Assembly (NCBI GenBank): GCA_050014835.1
Contig: JBEKCO010000009.1
Span: 1 to 62,989, forward strand
From: Acidimicrobiales bacterium
Lineage (GTDB): Bacteria > Actinomycetota > Acidimicrobiia > Acidimicrobiales > Bog-793
Reading direction: 5' to 3'
DNA: 62,989 bases
Shown: positions 2,796 to 54,330 of the stretch, in pieces
Layout of the letters: each line of letters opens with the position of its first letter
Position numbering within the stretch: the first letter of the stretch is position 1
Translations under genes and position numbers: made by a program
Notes under the pieces: generated by a model
What the model saw: the letters and a program-made list of their open reading frames with translations, nothing else
What the model was told of the DNA's origin: nothing
Database searches by the model: none

Positions 2796-4349
2796 ATGAC
2801 GGGCCCGGTGGGCGGAGCCGGCGCCTCGAGCACCCCGGGGGTCGCGCGATCGCACTGGATGGCGCTCACCGTCCTGTGCGTCGCCGTGCTCGTCGTGAAC
2901 CTCGACAACACGATCCTCAACGTCGCGCTGCCGACCCTCGTCCGCCGCCTCGGCGCGACGACCGACGAGCTGCAGTGGATCGTCGATGCCTACGCGATGG
3001 CCTTCGGCGGGTTGCTCCTCGTCGGCGGGAGCCTCGCCGACCGGTTCGGACGCAAGCGGTTCTTCGTCCTCGGACTCGCCGTTTTCGGGGGCGGGTCACT
3101 GGGCGCGGCCTTCTCCGGGGGCGTCGGCCCGCTCATTGCCTGGCGCGCCGTCATGGGCGCCGGCGCGGCGATGACGATCCCGTCCGGCCTCTCGATCGTG
3201 AACGATCTCTTCCGCGCGGCCCAGGCCCGCGCCCGGGCGATCGGCATCTGGTCGGGCACGATCGGGCTCGGGATCGCGATCGGCCCCGTCGCCGGGGGGC
3301 TGCTCCTCAGCCGCTTCTGGTGGGGGTCGGTCTTTTTCGTCAACGTGCCGGTCGTCGTCTTGGGCATCGTCGGGACACTGGTTTTCGTCCCCGAGTCGCG
3401 TAGCTCCTCCCCCAACCGGCCGGACCCGGCTGGATCGGTGCTCTCGATCATCGGGCTCGGGCTTGTCCTGTGGGCGATCATCGAGGGCCCGACCCGCGGC
3501 TGGGCCTCGGGCCAGGTCCTCGGCGTCGGCGTGGCGGGGCTCGTCGTCGTCGTCGGGTTCGTCGCCTGGGAACGGGCGATCGACCACCCGATGCTGCCGC
3601 TCGGGTTTTTCGGGTCGCGCCGGTTCAGCGTCGCGATCGTGACCGTCGGCCTCGGGCTCTTCGCGCTGTTCGGGGGACTTTTCATCATGACCCAGTTCCT
3701 CCAGTTCTTCCTCGGCTATACGCCGCTCGGCGCGGGCCTCCGCATCCTGCCGATCGCCGGGATCCTGGCGTGCGGCGCGCTCGTCTCCCCGCGGGGCGTG
3801 CGGATGATCGGGACGAAGCTCGTCGCCGCGTTGGGGCTTCTGGCGATCGTCGGCGGGCTCGCCCAGATCGCCGTCGTCTCGACCGGTTCGGCGACCTACC
3901 CGAGCGAGCTCCCGGGGATGCTGCTTGTCGGGCTCGGGGCGGGCCTGCTCGTGCCGGCGGCGATCGACTCCGTGCTCGGGGCCGTCACCCAGGCCGACGC
4001 CGGCGTCGGGTCGGCGGTGAACTCGACGGCGATGCAGATCGGCGGGGCGATCGGCGTCGCCGTGATCGGCAGCGTGCTCTCCACCCGCTACCGGGGTGCG
4101 ATGCAGCAGGCGATCGCCGGGAAGCCGGTGCCGGCCGGCGCGGCGCACGCCATCCTCGGGTCGATCGGGGGCGCGCTCGGCGTCGCCCACCTCGTCGGGG
4201 GCGCGTTCGGCGCCGAGCTCACCCGGGCCGCCATCGACGCTTTCGCGACCGGATCCCGCACGGCCCTTGTCGTCGGGGCCTTTGTCACCGGGGCGGGCGT
4301 GCTTGTGGCCCTCGCCGCGCTGCCCTCGCGTGCCGGGCCGAAGGCGTGA
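2796..4349 (+). CDS. MFS transporter, DHA2 (EmrB/QacA) type
   Basis: 517 aa, about 14 hydrophobic segments, motif A-like GGSLADRFGRKR. Immediately follows the TetR stop. Confidence 0.85.
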   Translation: MTGPVGGAGASSTPGVARSHWMALTVLCVAVLVVNLDNTILNVALPTLVRRLGATTDELQWIVDAYAMAFGGLLLVGGSLADRFGRKRFFVLGLAVFGGGSLGAAFSGGVGPLIAWRAVMGAGAAMTIPSGLSIVNDLFRAAQARARAIGIWSGTIGLGIAIGPVAGGLLLSRFWWGSVFFVNVPVVVLGIVGTLVFVPESRSSSPNRPDPAGSVLSIIGLGLVLWAIIEGPTRGWASGQVLGVGVAGLVVVVGFVAWERAIDHPMLPLGFFGSRRFSVAIVTVGLGLFALFGGLFIMTQFLQFFLGYTPLGAGLRILPIAGILACGALVSPRGVRMIGTKLVAALGLLAIVGGLAQIAVVSTGSATYPSELPGMLLVGLGAGLLVPAAIDSVLGAVTQADAGVGSAVNSTAMQIGGAIGVAVIGSVLSTRYRGAMQQAIAGKPVPAGAAHAILGSIGGALGVAHLVGGAFGAELTRAAIDAFATGSRTALVVGAFVTGAGVLVALAALPSRAGPKA

Positions 4350-49030: not shown

Positions 49031-49939
49031 CTACTTGGACTGCGAGATGCTTCCCTTGGGCTCGGCGAGGAGATCGAGGACGGTCACGTACGGCCCTTCT
49101 CCGCCGGACGCCGGTGACTCGATGAGGCAGCGGCTGCCGAGCGGCGTGCCGATGAGCGGGTCGAGCCCGCTCGGCTCGCTCGTGATCCCGATCGGCGAGG
49201 CGTCCGGGACCTTCGCCGTCCAGGTCGAGTAGGCGACCTTGCCCTTCCAGTTGTACCAAACGGCCTGCACGATGACGAGGCCGGCCTTCACAGGGGCACC
49301 GTGGCCGCGGTCGAGCACCGTCGACAGTACGGCGGTGGGCTTTTTCGTCCCCTTGGCGATCGTGACCTTGGGCTGAGACCCGAGCGCCCCGGAGACGTTC
49401 ACGCCGCCGAGGCCGGTCCGCTCGACGGTGGCGTGAACGTCACCGGAGATGTCGGGGCTGTAGGTGCCGAGGATGTCGACGACGAACACGAGCGTGTCGG
49501 TCCCGGTGATCCCGGCCCCGGGGTTGCCCTTCTTGCCGTAGCCGTCGACCGGCGGGATGACGAGCAGCACCCGGCTGCCGACGTGCATTCCGACGAGCGT
49601 GTCGTTCCAACCCGGGATGAGGCCCTTGACGCCGATGTGGAAGGCCTGGGGCACGGGCTGGTTGAACGAGGTGCCGAAGACCTTGCCGCCCCAGATCTGG
49701 CCGACGTAGTTCACGACCATGAGGTCGCCCTTTTTGACGACGGGACCGGTCCCTTTCTGGAGGACGGTCGCCGACAGCTTCTTTGGCGGAGCGGTGTTCG
49801 GGATGACGATCTTCGGCGTGTGGCCGAACGTGGTCGAGACCGTCGGGAGCGTGCTCGACGACCGGGCGACGCGCACCGCCCCGGCGACCGGCGCCGACAC
49901 GGCGAGGAGGACGAGGACGGAAAAGACGATGCGGCGCAA
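49031..49939 (-). CDS. FKBP-type peptidyl-prolyl cis-trans isomerase, secreted, two-domain
   Basis: TTG 49939 after GAAGGGAA. Signal-like RRIVFSVLVLLAVSAPVAGA. GLIPGWNDTLVGMHVGSRVLLVIPPVDGYG. Confidence 0.8.
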   Translation of the reverse strand: MRRIVFSVLVLLAVSAPVAGAVRVARSSSTLPTVSTTFGHTPKIVIPNTAPPKKLSATVLQKGTGPVVKKGDLMVVNYVGQIWGGKVFGTSFNQPVPQAFHIGVKGLIPGWNDTLVGMHVGSRVLLVIPPVDGYGKKGNPGAGITGTDTLVFVVDILGTYSPDISGDVHATVERTGLGGVNVSGALGSQPKVTIAKGTKKPTAVLSTVLDRGHGAPVKAGLVIVQAVWYNWKGKVAYSTWTAKVPDASPIGITSEPSGLDPLIGTPLGSRCLIESPASGGEGPYVTVLDLLAEPKGSISQSK

Positions 49940-49992
49940 GGAGTTCCCTTCGTTCGGCGGACGCCCGAGCGTAACCGTCTCGGCGCGCCGCG

Positions 49993-50000
49993 GACCTGCC
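49993..50000. repeat. Target-site duplication, left copy (GACCTGCC)
   Basis: Identical 8-mer at 52295-52302, directly abutting the other IS end. Confidence 0.75.
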
Positions 50001-50023
50001 GGTAGTGGGTCAGTTTGAATCCG
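50001..50023. repeat. IS terminal inverted repeat, left (GGTAGTGGGTCAGTTTGAATCCG)
   Basis: Exact reverse complement of 52272-52294. Confidence 0.9.
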
Positions 50024-50033
50024 AGGAGCGCAA

Positions 50034-50237
50034 ATGACAATCCGGCATCCGGGAGCTACCCTTCGCCACATGGGCGTGACGGTGGTTGTGGACTCAGAAG
50101 TCTCTGACGAATACGACATTGGTGACCGTTGGTCCGTCGACGGCGGCGGCGTGCTAACCGTTGTGGATTTGAACGGGTACCAGGTCGCAAGCTATCCCAG
50201 CGGCGGTTGGAAGACCGTGGCCAAGAAGCAAAACTAA
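50034..50237 (+). CDS. IS cargo ORF-A, 67-aa hypothetical protein
   Basis: ATG 50034 lies 5 nt after GAGGAG, which starts at the inner edge of the IR. The stop overlaps the transposase stop (convergent). Confidence 0.45.
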   Translation: MTIRHPGATLRHMGVTVVVDSEVSDEYDIGDRWSVDGGGVLTVVDLNGYQVASYPSGGWKTVAKKQN

Positions 50238-51091
50238 TCAAGCAGGCTCGCTATCTGCGTGTAGCTCCAGGGATACTTGGCAATCCCCGCCGCCATCGCT
50301 GGAGTGGTCGGCTTCCCGTACCGCTTGGTAAGCGTCTGATGCGGCCTGGCGAAGTTGTAGTACATGTAATGCAGATTGACCGCGTGGGTCAGGTTCTCAA
50401 GCTTCTTTGAGAAGGCGTTGGTCAGGCGGGTGAAGCGCCGCATCCCCATTCGCATGGTCAGGTTCTGGCGCTCCACGAAACTCGTTCCCGCCTTGTCGAG
50501 GTCAGGAGTGCCAGCAATCACGCGCTTGTCGATCCCGATGCACTGTGAAGGGCTGTAGGTCCGCTCCGTGTCGGCGTCGCTGCCGTAGAGCTTGTGGAGG
50601 ACTGAGTAGTCGATGTTGTCGCGGAACAGGCTGTCGACCACGTCGATGTAGAGCCGCAGGCCATCGGTCGTGAGCTGGATGCGGTGGCTCGGGTCGATCC
50701 GCGAGCGCATGTCAGCGATGAACGTGTAAGCGTCGGCCATCGTGCGCTCACCCACCAGCCAGCTCGGGACGAGCTTCGTGTCCGCGTCGACGGCAACCCA
50801 GGTCCAGACATCCCCATAGCCGGGAGTGTCTTGGAATTCGTCGGGAACGTTCTTTTGCTTTGCATAGCAAAACGACCAGATCTCGTCGCACTCCATCCGG
50901 CTCGGGCGCAGGTTGGTGAGCACGGCGTCCTGGTACTCGGCGCACGCCGCGCCGAGATCCACTAGGAGCTTCGTGACCGTGTTCTTCGCCACGCCGGTGA
51001 CGCGAACGATGGATCGAATGCTCATGCCTTCACACAGCAGGCTTACAACCTGGCCTCTGCGCTCCGTGCTTAACCTGTTCATAGTGACCAT
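50234..51091 (-). CDS. IS1 family transposase (single-ORF, HTH + DDE)
   Basis: Blocks colinear with E. coli IS1 InsAB: CDEIWSF, GERTMADAYTF, TTDGLRLY, VERQNLTMRMGMRRFTRLTNAFSKK. The native start is probably the second ATG (51082, MNRLSTERRG). Confidence 0.9.
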   Translation of the reverse strand: MVTMNRLSTERRGQVVSLLCEGMSIRSIVRVTGVAKNTVTKLLVDLGAACAEYQDAVLTNLRPSRMECDEIWSFCYAKQKNVPDEFQDTPGYGDVWTWVAVDADTKLVPSWLVGERTMADAYTFIADMRSRIDPSHRIQLTTDGLRLYIDVVDSLFRDNIDYSVLHKLYGSDADTERTYSPSQCIGIDKRVIAGTPDLDKAGTSFVERQNLTMRMGMRRFTRLTNAFSKKLENLTHAVNLHYMYYNFARPHQTLTKRYGKPTTPAMAAGIAKYPWSYTQIASLLD

Positions 51092-51130
51092 TATACGTGC
51101 TTAACCTGTTCATAGTGACCATTATACGTG
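51065..51130. repeat. 31-bp tandem duplication (2.1 copies) spanning the transposase start and -10 box
   Basis: 51066-51096 and 51097-51127 are identical (gtgcttaacctgttcatagtgaccattatac). Confidence 0.9.
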
Positions 51131-51149
51131 ACTGCCTTAGCATTGTCAA
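51121..51149 (-). promoter_or_regulatory. Consensus sigma70-type promoter for the transposase
   Basis: On the minus strand: TTGACA (51149-51144), 17-nt spacer, TATAAT (51126-51121). An ATG A-residue lies 8 nt downstream (51113). Confidence 0.5.
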
Positions 51150-51201
51150 GGCGCGTAAACCTGGCTTCAAGCCACGCGAGAAGGAAATCGCGCGAAATGA
51201 C

Positions 51202-51230
51202 TTGTCAGCCCCGCTTTCGCGCGGTAGAAT
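51202..51230 (+). promoter_or_regulatory. Near-consensus promoter facing away from the transposase
   Basis: TTGTCA (51202-51207), 17-nt spacer, TAGAAT (51225-51230). Confidence 0.45.
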
Positions 51231-51236
51231 GACGGA

Positions 51237-51310
51237 AGTTGTAGGGGGAGGACCGGTGCGGTGCCCGTGTCGCAAGCACGGAGGGCTCTGCCCGGTCCTT
51301 TCTATTTGGG
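51237..51310 (+). ncRNA. Candidate short structured transcript (sRNA or leader) ending in a hairpin plus T-rich tract
   Basis: AGGACCGG (51249-51256) pairs with CCGGTCCT (51292-51299). Inner stem CCGTG/CACGG (51265-51269 / 51277-51281). Followed by TTCTATTT. Confidence 0.25.
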
Positions 51311-51397
51311 CGCTGGCTGCCTGCTTCCCTCAGAATCGGCACAAGGGCAGCCCTGCCGGGTCATGTCATCTCGACCTCCTTCCCGCCCGACCTGGGG

Positions 51398-51910
51398 CTA
51401 ACCGAGAATCTGGGCTGCCACGTCGCGGACGCGGTCGCTCGTGGTCATGACGCCGTACTTGAAGATTGCGCCCATACCGCGCTGGGAGGCGACCTGCCAA
51501 AGGGCATGCCCGACGTTTTCCACGCGTCCGGCTTGCCGAAGTCCACTGAGAGCTGCGGAAACGTATTTCGCACTGTCGCCTTCACGGCCCTTATTGGTGA
51601 GCGCTGACGCGATCTGGTCGGGACTCATCGGGGTGCCGACCTCGTTAAGAACCGCAAGAACGGCGTCCGTCCGAGCCAAGTGCGCCCAGTCGATCGGCAT
51701 CGCCGCCGTAACGGTGCGCTCGATTTCGGCGAGCGCTTCCTTGTCGCCGAACTGCCGCGCGGCTATTCGCAGGCCGTCGAACATTTCGTCGATCTCGTTC
51801 ATCTCATCCTGCTCGTGGTCGAGCAAGTCGGAGAGTTCGGAAATCCGCGAAACGCTGGCCTCGCGGCGGGCCTTGGCTTGACGAACAATTTCGATTAGTT
51901 CCACGGTCAT
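51398..51910 (-). CDS. IS cargo ORF-B, 170-aa hypothetical protein (coiled-coil N-terminus, winged-helix-like centre)
   Basis: Acidic helical N-terminus, then AVLAVLNEVGTPMSPDQIASALTNKGREGDSAKYVSAALSGLRQAGRVENVGHALWQV, reminiscent of Mrr-N-type wHTH. Confidence 0.55.
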   Translation of the reverse strand: MTVELIEIVRQAKARREASVSRISELSDLLDHEQDEMNEIDEMFDGLRIAARQFGDKEALAEIERTVTAAMPIDWAHLARTDAVLAVLNEVGTPMSPDQIASALTNKGREGDSAKYVSAALSGLRQAGRVENVGHALWQVASQRGMGAIFKYGVMTTSDRVRDVAAQILG

Positions 51911-51973
51911 CTAGCGTACACGATTTCCCAGGCCCTGTCACTGGGTGCTGGGGCTGGCGTCCCCAGGACTACA

Positions 51974-52228
51974 TCAACGAGATTCGGTAGGTCTGGCTCG
52001 TCCCCATCGAGCTTCGGCCGCGCGCTTCGCTAGCTCAGATCGCTGGTCAGGGGTCAATTTAGCGGCCCGCGCCTTTCCGCCCTTCTTTCCGCCCAGCCTC
52101 CCCAGCTCCACGGCGGCAGGGTTCTTCCCCTTATAGGGATCGGGCTCCGGTTCGTCGCTCGTCGACTGGGCCACGATGGCCGCGGCGAGGGCATTCAGAT
52201 CACGGGGCTTACTCGAGCGCTTAGGCAT
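51974..52228 (-). CDS. IS cargo ORF-C, 84-aa basic protein
   Basis: LGRLGGKKGGKARAAKLTPDQRSELAKRAAEARW, a Lys/Arg-rich helical tail seen in many small mobile-element proteins. Confidence 0.55.
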   Translation of the reverse strand: MPKRSSKPRDLNALAAAIVAQSTSDEPEPDPYKGKNPAAVELGRLGGKKGGKARAAKLTPDQRSELAKRAAEARWGRARPTESR

Positions 52229-52271
52229 GTTCTCAGCGTACCGAATCGGATCAACGGTGCCTAGCCCTCGG

Positions 52272-52294
52272 CGGATTCAAACTGACCCACTACC
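52272..52294. repeat. IS terminal inverted repeat, right
   Basis: Reverse complement of 50001-50023, 23/23 identical. Confidence 0.9.
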
Positions 52295-52302
52295 GACCTG
52301 CC
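52295..52302. repeat. Target-site duplication, right copy (GACCTGCC)
   Basis: Identical to 49993-50000. Confidence 0.75.
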
Positions 52303-52321: not shown

Positions 52322-53425
52322 CTACGCAGAGGGCGCCGGGGCCGTCTGGTCCGGGGGTCGCGTCGTCGGGGCCGGCGAGACGACGGATGGCGGTCGCGCC
52401 TCTCGCCGGAGGGCCGCGAGCTGGCCGCAGGCGGCGTCGATCGTGCGGCCCCGCGTCCGGCGCACAGTGGCGTTGACGCCGTTGGCGTCGAGCCGGTGCT
52501 GGAAGGAAAGAACCCTGGTCCGGGGCGATCCGGCGAGCCCGCGGGCCATTCCACCGGGCGTCGGGTTGAGCGGGATGAGGTTGACGTGGGCGCGCAACGC
52601 GAGCGCGATCCCCGAAAGCTCGTCCGCGTCGTCGTCGGAGTCGTTTACATCGCAGATGAGCGCCCACTCGAGAGAGATCCGGCGGTGTGTCGCCTCGACG
52701 TAGTCGCGACAGGCCCTGACGAGTTCGTCGAGGGGATACCGGCGGTTCAGCGGCACGAGCGAGTCGCGCAGCGCGTCGTTGGCGGCGTGTAGCGAGACGG
52801 CGAGATTGACCTGTCGCTTCGCCTCCGTGAGTTTCCGGATCCCGGGGACGACGCCGACGGTTGACACCGTGACGTGCCGGGCGGCGATGCCGATGTCGTC
52901 GACGATCCGTTCGATCGCCCGCCAGACGTGGTCGTAGTTGGCGAGTGGTTCGCCCATCCCCATGAAAACGACGTGATCGAGCCGTCGCCCGGCGGCCCGC
53001 GCGGCCCGGCCCGCCAGCACGACCTGCTCGACGATCTCCCCGGTCGAGAGGTGCCGGGCGAAGCCGGCGTCGCCCGTCGCACAGAACGTGCAGGCCATCG
53101 CGCAGCCGGCCTGTGACGATACGCACACCGTCGAGCGGCGCGGATGGTGCATGAGCACCGCCTCGATCGCCGTGCCGTCGCCGAGGGCGAGCAGCCATTT
53201 GCGGGTCGTGCCGCCGTCCGCCGCGAGCTCGTGCACGATCCGCAGGCCGGGCGCGAGAGCAGATTCCCCCAAGAGGCGCTCCCGGAGCGCCCTCGGGAGG
53301 ACGCGCAGCTCGCCCGGCTCGGCGAGTCCGCGGTACAGGCCGTCCCAGAGCTGGTCGGCCCGGTATCGCGGCTCGTCGGCGAGGAGCTCGGCGATCTCGG
53401 AGCGCGAGAGGTCGTAGCGGCTCAT
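52322..53425 (-). CDS. rlmN: 23S rRNA/tRNA (adenine-C2)-methyltransferase RlmN (radical SAM)
   Basis: YRADQLW, CAMACTFCATG, MGMGEPLAN. ATG 53425 overlaps the mshD stop. Confidence 0.9.
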   Translation of the reverse strand: MSRYDLSRSEIAELLADEPRYRADQLWDGLYRGLAEPGELRVLPRALRERLLGESALAPGLRIVHELAADGGTTRKWLLALGDGTAIEAVLMHHPRRSTVCVSSQAGCAMACTFCATGDAGFARHLSTGEIVEQVVLAGRAARAAGRRLDHVVFMGMGEPLANYDHVWRAIERIVDDIGIAARHVTVSTVGVVPGIRKLTEAKRQVNLAVSLHAANDALRDSLVPLNRRYPLDELVRACRDYVEATHRRISLEWALICDVNDSDDDADELSGIALALRAHVNLIPLNPTPGGMARGLAGSPRTRVLSFQHRLDANGVNATVRRTRGRTIDAACGQLAALRREARPPSVVSPAPTTRPPDQTAPAPSA

Positions 53426-54330
53426 CCCGCCGGCTCCACGTCGCCCACATAGGAGCGGTCGTCGTGGTCGACGACGAAGCCGGCCGCGGCGTACAGCTCG
53501 GCGGCCGGCGCGTTGTCGGCTTCGACGTACAGCATCGCGGTCCGGAGGCCCTTCGCCGAGAGCCACTCGAGGCCGGCCCGGAGCATCCCCCGTCCGATTC
53601 CGTGGGCCTGGATCGCGGGGTCGGCGCCGAGCACGTAGATCTCGCCGACCCGCGGCTCGTCGTCGTGGATCTTGGTCCAGCAGAAGGCGGCGATCTTCCC
53701 CTCTCGCTCGTAAAGGAGGAAGCCGTCGGGATCGAACCAGGGTTGTCGTTCGCGCGCGGAGAGGGTCGCCGCCGTCCAGGAGCCCTGGTCCGGGTGCGAG
53801 GCGAAGACGCGGTTGTTGAGCTCGAGCCAGACGGACTCATCCTCGCCGACCCGGAAGGGGCGGGTCGCCAGCGGCGCCGATCCGTCGGGTTCCAGGGGCA
53901 GCGGCCGCCTCATCTGGTGCAGCTCACGGTCGCAGGTGAGGCCGACGGAGGCCGCGATCTCGTCGCTCGTCGCCGTCGCCATCCGCACCCAGCACCGGAC
54001 GTGGCCGCCGCCTCGACGCGCGACGATGTCGAGCGCCGCGCGACAAAGCGCCTGGCCGGTCGCGAGGCCGCCGGTGAGCGCGGGGTCGAGGACGTAGGCG
54101 AGCTGCCAGGAACCTGGTTCCCCGTCCAGCTGTGCGTAACCGACGACGCGACCTGAGCCCGGATCGCGCGCGACGAACCCCGCGGAGCCCGCCGGGCGGC
54201 CCGCGACGAGTGCGTCCCAGCTGTCGTCGTCGATCGGCCGACTCCCGGACGCGTCCCGGACCGACTGCAGGAATGTGGTGATCCCCGGCCCGTCCTCGTC
54301 GTCGCGTCGCGCAACCTCGACTTGGCCCAT
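53422..54330 (-). CDS. mshD: Mycothiol synthase (two-domain GNAT)
   Basis: FCWTKIHDDEPRVGEIYVLGADPAIQAHGIGRGML...LYVEADNAPAAELY. ATG 54330. Confidence 0.8.
   Translation of the reverse strand: MGQVEVARRDDEDGPGITTFLQSVRDASGSRPIDDDSWDALVAGRPAGSAGFVARDPGSGRVVGYAQLDGEPGSWQLAYVLDPALTGGLATGQALCRAALDIVARRGGGHVRCWVRMATATSDEIAASVGLTCDRELHQMRRPLPLEPDGSAPLATRPFRVGEDESVWLELNNRVFASHPDQGSWTAATLSARERQPWFDPDGFLLYEREGKIAAFCWTKIHDDEPRVGEIYVLGADPAIQAHGIGRGMLRAGLEWLSAKGLRTAMLYVEADNAPAAELYAAAGFVVDHDDRSYVGDVEPAG

Follow-up and report, generated by a model that had tools for sequence, protein, structure and literature searches.

Which of the genes enclosed by the ends of a bacterial insertion sequence (IS) belong to it, and which arrived by accident, is the question raised by a 2.3-kb element on contig JBEKCO010000009.1 of an Acidimicrobiales bacterium (GenBank assembly GCA_050014835.1). 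The whole stretch of DNA analyzed, 62,989 bp in length, is referred to as the window, and coordinates without a locus name are those of the window. The element occupies positions 50001 to 52294 and contains a transposase gene, a gene for an 84-amino-acid (aa) protein designated p84, and two further open reading frames (ORFs) of 170 and 67 aa designated p170 and p67. It had first been described from the letters of the DNA and a list of ORFs, in what is called here the sequence-only reading. The element is considered likely to be a transporter IS (tIS), an established category of passenger-bearing IS (PMC9330008; PMC7986276; TnCentral preprint), within a subgroup of the IS1 family that is large and divergent and has single-ORF transposases. 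Its p170 and p67 genes are true passengers, lying within its ends and its target-site duplication.

Element ends and transposase

The element is 2294 bp long and was read directly between two identical copies of the octamer GACCTGCC, at 49993-50000 and 52295-52302. The chance of an 8/8 match is ~6e-5 at the local base composition, and identical 8-bp flanks, read as GGCAGGTC in the oriented loci, surround the element in other assemblies. The terminal inverted repeat GGTAGTGGGTCAGTTTGAATCCG (23 nt) has exactly two occurrences in the window, one on the plus strand at the transposase-proximal end (50001-50023) and its exact reverse complement on the minus strand at the p84-proximal end (52272-52294), and shuffled sequences gave an expectation of 0 chance matches with up to 3 mismatches allowed. 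The repeat can be extended to 32 nt with a 91 % match, and its transposase-proximal copy includes the motif GGTCAGTTTGA at 50008-50018. The G+C content is 60.7 % in the element versus 71.8 % in the remaining window, and the transposase gene makes up 37 % of the element length, so that ~63 % is non-transposase DNA. In these respects the sequence-only reading was accurate: the inverted repeats are a unique pair in the window, the duplication adjoins each end, the drop in G+C was reproduced exactly when recounted (26 G/C in the 60 nt at 51101-51160), the ORFs of 285, 67, 170 and 84 aa were all located where they had been placed, and the non-transposase share had been put at about 60 %.

The transposase is encoded by a single ORF of 285 aa on the minus strand (50234-51091), with M4 at 51082 predicted as the probable true, leaderless initiation site. 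It matches PF03400 (DDE_Tnp_IS1) with 28.2 bits, above the Pfam gathering cut-off of 24.1, and a profile of 24 family members was aligned by hhalign with InsB of Escherichia coli IS1A over 118 columns (probability 93.9 %, E 1.6e-7). The alignment spans the D, D and E blocks (DEIW/DEQW, TDGL/TDGW and ERQNLTMR..FSKK/ERHNLNLR..FSKS) and predicts D69, D143 and E207 as the catalytic residues. An N-terminal helix-turn-helix (HTH) is found at about residues 8-42, and every family-invariant residue is kept in the window protein. More than 8000 homologues are present among non-redundant proteins, mainly metagenomic, and many of these are labelled "IS1 family transposase". The terminal consensus of the IS1 family in ISfinder is GGnnnTG, and the tip of the element, GGTAGTG, has the pattern GGT..TG in common with the tips of IS1A, GGTGATG and GGTAATG. 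An InsB-homologous DDE transposase, GGnnnTG tips and a target duplication in the range of 8-9 bp, here 8 bp, are therefore all present, as expected of an IS1-family member, and the family call of the sequence-only reading stands.

Other assignments were tried and rejected. The classical IS1 group, with an insA/insB' -1 frameshift and a length under ~1.2 kb, was ruled out by the uninterrupted 285-aa ORF and the 2294-bp length. The IS1595 family, with transposases of the DDNK/DDEK type that bear a zinc ribbon at the N-terminus, gave only a sub-threshold score (NF033547, 15 bits where the cut-off is 75, E 0.017) and no match to PF12762 or PF12760, and the NCBIfam scores for IS6 and IS481 were far below that for IS1.

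A subgroup with the same ends

A total of 80 loci were retrieved from species-representative genomes and scanned for the 18-bp tip GGTAGTGGGTCAGTTTGA, and a unit was regarded as delimited where the tip was present on both sides together with an 8-bp duplication, with no more than one mismatch. The 53 delimited units (the window's own and 52 relatives) range from 1862 to 4768 bp, so that even the shortest exceeds the size of a bare IS. The tip is near-invariant across Actinomycetota, Chloroflexota, Planctomycetota, Acidobacteriota, Nitrospirota and Pseudomonadota, and cultured bacteria are represented among the units by one of 3370 bp on plasmid p_1 of Mesorhizobium loti 582 (CP050295.1; duplication CGCTGGTG), one of 2634 bp on a plasmid of Acidiphilium multivorum and one of 2888 bp in Mycobacterium interjectum. 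The gene order common to the 52 relatives is end, p84, cargo slot, internal promoter, transposase, optional tail cargo and end, and the layout of p84, cargo slot and transposase is the architecture of the whole subgroup. The extra genes had been taken by the sequence-only reading as part of the element and not as an accident, which is borne out by the 52 relatives with the same ends and order and differing inserts; its statement that the non-transposase DNA resembles no nameable module was too strong, as this layout recurs family-wide.

The p84 gene (51974-52228, minus strand) begins 66 nt inside the element end. The 84-aa protein had been counted as cargo, a view that could not be kept: ~8000 proteins are homologous to p84, with identities of 70-88 %, and of the 53 units 52-53 contain p84 (48 by BLAST and the remaining five by hidden Markov model (HMM), one of these weakly), and it is therefore a core gene of the IS subgroup. 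In the units its strand is nearly always that of the transposase gene, and its start is either 15-85 nt from the end or separated from the end by one or two additional genes. Several p84 matches are on contigs equal in length to those of transposase matches. By sequence comparison, p84 is more conserved than the transposase. The protein is basic and helical, with the motif GGKKGGKARAAKLTPxQRSEIAKRAAEARW, and its AlphaFold model consists of four helices with a predicted local distance difference test (pLDDT) score of 75. No match was found in Pfam, NCBIfam or PADLOC, the p84 profile gave only noise against the PDB (best E 0.38), Foldseek returned nothing from the PDB below E 5, and comparison with InsA of IS1 revealed no relationship. 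By analogy with InsA, and as a non-homologous counterpart, p84 would be an accessory or regulatory factor of the subgroup.

Two observations on p84 extend beyond the window. In the Mesorhizobium loti 582 plasmid p_1 (locus L101, 1575-1784) the p84 homologue is labelled "histone H1" in GenBank, and its neighbours are an HTH protein of 367 aa and a protein annotated as hypothetical, a pair with a layout similar to that of the RmrA/RmrT cargo in other relatives. The C-terminal motif of p84, GGKARA..LT.EQRSEIA.KAA.ARW, also occurs N-terminally in P63C-domain proteins (phrog_2384, locus L055 at 2806-3945, and the cargo of locus L030), and the shared motif could be a module for nucleic-acid binding or targeting that is portable between proteins.

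The cargo of the 52 relatives was characterized by a scan of 82 of their cargo ORFs, each 140 aa or longer, against Pfam and PADLOC. The Rosmer protein RmrA was matched by 7-9 ORFs (full length, E down to 1e-154) and its partner RmrT by four (PADLOC). Pfam identified ClpP-like SDH proteases in six ORFs, P63C in two, N6/N4 methylases in two, one of them fused to an Mrr nuclease, and small XRE-type HTH proteins in 14 matches, RmrA proteins included (HTH_3). GmrSD/HEC-06 was found in two ORFs by Pfam and PADLOC, which also gave single matches to SoFic, SIR2, DUF3800, SocA/Panacea, NYN and DUF1828/PDC-M24B, PDC-M24B not being counted set-wide. RmrA, composed of an XRE-type HTH and an M78 peptidase, lies between p84 and the transposase in loci L021, L038, L062, L070, L090, L093 and L094, with RmrT beside it in L021, L062, L070 and L093, and the Rosmer-bearing units are flanked by 8-bp duplications. 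On the strength of these matches the subgroup is a carrier of compact defence and toxin-antitoxin-type genes, a statement that applies at the family level only.

The closest comparison is offered by a sister element of 2470 bp in locus L011 (2618-5087; also in L012-L020), with the same tips and the duplication GAGCCGTC. Between this element and that of the window the transposases have 96 % protein and 86 % DNA identity, yet the p84 proteins have only 60 %, and at the position of p170 the slot of the sister element holds a proteasome-like (Ntn hydrolase) protein of 272-277 aa. DNA similarity between the two elements is limited to the transposase gene, ~50 nt upstream of that gene, and the tips. 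The reverse mosaic is seen in other relatives, for example with 70 % identity in the transposase and 83 % in p84. The discordant identities of p84 and transposase indicate that the modules have been shuffled, most simply, to judge from the sequences, by recombination at conserved segments. Exchange of the cargo by recombination is suggested likewise by the sister element, which combines 96 % identity in the transposase with only 60 % in p84 and wholly different cargo.

In some relatives a foreign, diverged right end adjoins the left end (L039 at 1691/1700, L051 at 2388/2397, L088 at 2374/2383, and L076 at 1118/1127 and 3037/3046). In these four loci exactly the 8-bp duplication separates the abutting ends, and in L083, L084 and L085 the spacer is 2-5 bp. 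Three occurrences of the octamer of L076, TCTCAGAC, indicate a tandem array there. The abutting ends suggest insertion beside existing ends, or tandem multimers.

Transposase promoter, passengers and insertion site

A promoter scan of the element found two promoter-like sites against 0.3 expected, which are the two promoters named in the sequence-only reading. The transposase promoter, TTGACA-17-TATAAT (12/12), is at 51121-51149 on the minus strand, and a divergent promoter-like site, TTGTCA-17-TAGAAT (10/12), is at 51202-51230 on the plus strand. Nearly all transposase genes of the family are preceded by (TTGAC..)-17-(c/t)ATAAT, then GGTCAGT, then ATGAAC, and this spacing predicts a leaderless mRNA that begins at the invariant Met4-Asn5. 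Of the 53 units, 37 have the motif GGTCANT[AT]TGA at one end, 43 have it at the opposite end and 31 have it where the transposase gene starts; elsewhere in the 180 kb of units it occurs once only, as the window's own duplication described below. At the transposase start, GGTCA-N-T-(A/T)-TGA is a copy of the inner terminal repeat motif GGTCAGTTTGA. The discriminator region of a promoter needs no conservation for promoter function. Given the conservation of an end-like motif at this promoter, the simplest explanation would be that an end-binding protein also binds there and represses transcription of the transposase gene, and the arrangement suggests autoregulation.

In the window's copy this region is altered by a perfect 31-bp tandem duplication, 2 x CGTGCTTAACCTGTTCATAGTGACCATTATA, at 51065-51126, which doubles the -10 box, the GGTCACTATGA motif (51120-51110 and 51089-51079, minus strand) and the first six transposase codons. 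Every independent assembly of the element has the duplication, and no relative does. The upstream duplicate start, behind the perfect -35/-10 pair, opens an out-of-frame leaderless peptide of 27 aa, and the in-frame transposase start is behind the second TATAAT (51095-51090, minus strand), itself a product of the duplication and provided with a poor -35. Because an out-of-frame AUG follows the strong promoter, transposase output is probably lowered, which is consistent with a fixed, quiescent copy.

For a tIS of this kind the following mechanism is proposed. The transposase would bind the conserved tips and cut the target with an 8-bp stagger, and its gene would have a sigma-70-type promoter of its own inside the element, giving a leaderless transcript. 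The protein that recognizes the ends would also sit on this promoter as a repressor, transferring to an internal site the logic of InsA at the left inverted repeat (IRL) of IS1, and p84 would be an accessory or regulatory DNA-binding factor, comparable to InsA in function. The segments between the conserved modules would act as cargo slots, with contents swapped by recombination between related elements.

The two passengers of the window's element are absent from all 52 relatives, whose same slots hold other genes, and we infer from this distribution that they are dispensable for transposition. The p170 gene (51398-51910, minus strand) has a coding-like composition, with G+C at codon positions 1/2/3 (GC1/2/3) of 0.68/0.43/0.74. 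The protein is predicted to have long, coiled-coil-like helices at about residues 2-70 and a winged-helix-like C-terminal region at about residues 74-143, and the N-terminal helices reach a pLDDT of ~75 in a single-sequence AlphaFold (AF2) model. Residues 74-143 are matched by phrog_2440, a "transcriptional regulator" (E 1.2e-4), and weakly by the C-terminal, winged-helix-like parts of the proteins that fill this slot in L033, L066, L087 and L097 (hhalign E 1e-3, probability 19 %). Nothing useful was found for p170 in Pfam, NCBIfam or PDB. From the model and these matches, p170 is probably a DNA-binding regulator with a coiled coil and a winged helix.

The p67 gene (50034-50237, plus strand) is convergent with the transposase gene, with a 4-nt overlap, and has GAGGAG 4-9 nt upstream of its ATG and a likewise coding-like GC1/2/3 of 0.62/0.43/0.69. 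Three small homologues of 55-66 aa were found among 1.8 billion proteins (E 2e-4 to 7e-4), and this rare family has the motif GD.W.V..GVLTV.D..G..VASYP.G.W. An HMM of this family found no copy in any related locus, and the PDB search gave only noise. The codon-position composition of both genes and the three homologues of p67 count as a coding signal for these ORFs.

The divergent promoter-like site is followed at 51245-51303 by a hairpin (dG -42.2 kcal/mol, z -2.67) and then UAUUU, and the two form a promoter-hairpin unit on the plus strand (51202-51310) for a candidate RNA of ~70 nt (about 51237-51310), which would be antisense to the sequence that follows the p170 gene. The structured short transcript of the sequence-only reading is represented here by a predicted hairpin of dG -42 kcal/mol and z -2.7 ahead of the UAUUU. 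The unit could plausibly give rise to a short RNA complementary to read-through transcripts that run from p170 to the transposase gene. The candidate RNA has no Rfam match and no similar sequence in the relatives, and all its copies are identical.

The element is inserted 27 nt downstream of the stop codon of a radical-SAM (RlmN-like) gene and 61 nt upstream of the start of a gene for an FKBP-type peptidyl-prolyl isomerase, which has the same orientation. The flanking FKBP and RlmN-like genes are at 49031-50119 and 52322-53566 of the window, all on the minus strand. The insertion may split a former operon or drive transcription into the FKBP gene. No tRNA gene was found in the 63-kb window, and Rfam gave no match at the gathering threshold across the window and none on the element up to E 1. 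The p170 protein was listed in 66 index blocks, and 23 contigs were read; those with the exact transposase or p170 all represent the same rlmN/element/FKBP locus, and the element is base-for-base identical in each of them. No sign of current movement was seen at this locus, although the sequence-only reading had taken the element for a recent, possibly still mobile IS. Differences in called gene length (263 versus 285 aa and 55 versus 67 aa) were rejected as sequence variants and attributed to the choices of gene callers.

Alternative readings and place among known elements

Several results weigh against the assignment of the element as an IS1-family tIS with a self-regulating transposase. The NCBIfam equivalog model for IS1, NF033558, gave E 5e-15 and 56 bits against a cut-off of 100, and by this sub-cut-off score the transposase is a distant IS1 relative. 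Among 5.8 billion proteins p170 has no homologue but itself, and the C-terminal half of its model has a pLDDT below 50. Profile and Foldseek searches of the PDB gave p84 no recognizable DNA-binding fold. The putative operator motif overlaps in part the annotated first codons of the transposase gene (MVS/T). No second copy of the element was found in the window or the contig collection, and the exact 22-mer across the predicted empty site (CGCGGACCTGCCGGGCGG) identified no true empty site; its 11 metagenome matches, 24-32 nt long and without RlmN or FKBP homology nearby, were dismissed as chance on account of their short length and the missing homology.

A nested or composite origin, in which unrelated DNA entered a simple IS of ~1 kb and the "cargo" forms no integral part of any mobile unit, would fit the absence of p170 and p67 from other elements, the lack of p170 homologues and the single known insertion site. 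It is highly improbable, and largely refuted, in view of the 52 relatives with the same tips, whole-unit 8-bp duplications and a common succession of p84, slot and transposase, a minimum delimited length (1862 bp) that never falls to a bare IS, and the lack of a second pair of ends inside the element. An immobilized relic, intact but non-transposing and kept as neutral DNA or as a promoter source for the FKBP gene, is a possibility to be taken seriously, with the balance somewhat against it. The finding of a single site and a single sequence, free of polymorphism, in all samples agrees with this, as do the failure to find a second copy in the 63 kb or the contig collection, the out-of-frame AUG that the 31-bp duplication places at the leaderless start behind the strong promoter, and the position of the element 61 nt ahead of the FKBP start in the same orientation. 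The copy is nevertheless structurally intact, with perfect ends, a perfect duplication, an open transposase ORF and all family-invariant residues, and the second TATAAT could yet yield a correct leaderless mRNA.

Two further readings concern p170. It is unlikely that the protein is the element's own regulator, acting for example as an additional repressor or by insulating the expression of the transposase. Such a role would be in keeping with its winged-helix-like region, its position directly upstream of the transposase promoter and the similar architecture of coiled coil and winged HTH in the same slot of L033, L066, L087 and L097, but these proteins resemble one another only weakly (hhalign probability 19 %), and most relatives have no such protein, which is hence unneeded for transposition in the family. 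That p170, perhaps together with p67 and the plus-strand RNA, forms a new IS-borne defence or addiction module, like the Rosmer, SoFic and GmrSD cargo, is decidedly unlikely. The slots of relatives hold RmrA/RmrT, SoFic, HEC-06/GmrSD, SIR2, DUF3800, a methylase-Mrr fusion, SocA/Panacea and ClpP-like SDH proteases, and a strong promoter-hairpin unit adjoins p170. Against this, no domain of an enzymatic or toxin-like kind is present in p170, the p170 and p67 genes are at opposite ends and on opposite strands and form no operon, the four relatives with p170-like slot proteins show no obvious neighbouring effector, and neither protein has a PADLOC match of any weight: the best for p170 was PDC-M55C (E 0.0017, 15 bits, 38 residues), and p67 and p84 had none. 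The cargo of the defence or addiction type that the sequence-only reading proposed is thus found in the slots of relatives, whereas the proteins of the window match no PADLOC model.

A broader proposal joins these observations for the subgroup as a whole. The elements with the tip GGTAGTGGGTCAGTTTGA would be undescribed, phylum-spanning minimal "defence shuttles", in which an IS1-type transposase is combined with the unrelated 80-aa p84 and a three-site operator (both ends and the internal promoter), the slots swap anti-phage and toxin-antitoxin cassettes by recombination, and p170, p67 and the short RNA are new members of the defence or addiction type. Taken as a whole, this proposal is doubtful.

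As a tIS of the IS1 family, the element can be compared with three known groups. With IS1 (E. coli IS1A) it has in common the homologous DDE core, the GGT..TG tips, the 8-bp duplication and, as a prediction, promoter autoregulation by an end-binding function. It differs from IS1 in its single 285-aa ORF without an insA/insB -1 frameshift, in having no InsA homologue, p84 being unrelated to InsA, in its length of 2.3 kb versus 768 bp (three times longer), in its internal transposase promoter, which in IS1 is in the end repeat, and in its passenger genes. The ISMhu11 subgroup of IS1 has, in the ISfinder table, single-ORF transposases and lengths of up to ~4.6 kb, with which the single ORF of the window's element and the range of 1.9-4.8 kb measured for its relatives are compatible. 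The resemblance to the tIS of the IS1595 and IS66 families is in the IS-like ends, the one transposase and the passengers inside a single target duplication (PMC9330008; PMC7986276; TnCentral preprint), and p170 and p67 lie in this way inside one pair of ends and one duplication. Unlike those tIS, the window's element has an IS1-type transposase (E 5e-15 versus 0.017 for IS1595), and in its subgroup cargo is the rule and is accompanied by a conserved 80-aa accessory gene.

Transposons that carry defence genes are exemplified by Tn7-like elements with defence cargo. Relatives of the window's element resemble these in carrying Rosmer RmrA/RmrT, SoFic, GmrSD/HEC-06 and SIR2, whereas the subgroup is minimal, with 2-5 kb and one transposase in place of a multi-gene machinery, and the cargo of the window itself fits no known defence protein in PADLOC. 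A literature search found no paper on IS1-family elements with defence cargo. The features that appear under-described are those of the family, namely a p84 that is universal, an internal promoter that bears the end motif, and cargo rich in defence genes; the window's element itself is ordinary for its family and of modest importance alone.

The meaning of the finding therefore lies with the subgroup. For annotation, more than 8000 "IS1 family transposase" proteins, mostly from soil and peat Actinomycetota, Chloroflexota and others, belong to units of 2-5 kb with recognizable ends, and the "hypothetical", "histone H1" and defence genes beside such transposases are parts of mobile units. For the biology of mobile elements, the subgroup offers a testable IS1 relative in which InsA is replaced by an unrelated, more conserved small protein and a copy of the end sequence is kept on the internal promoter. 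For phage defence, it is a very small vehicle for genes of the Rosmer, SoFic, GmrSD and SIR2 types, and its unannotated cargo, p170 and p67 included, is a reasonable place to seek new systems.

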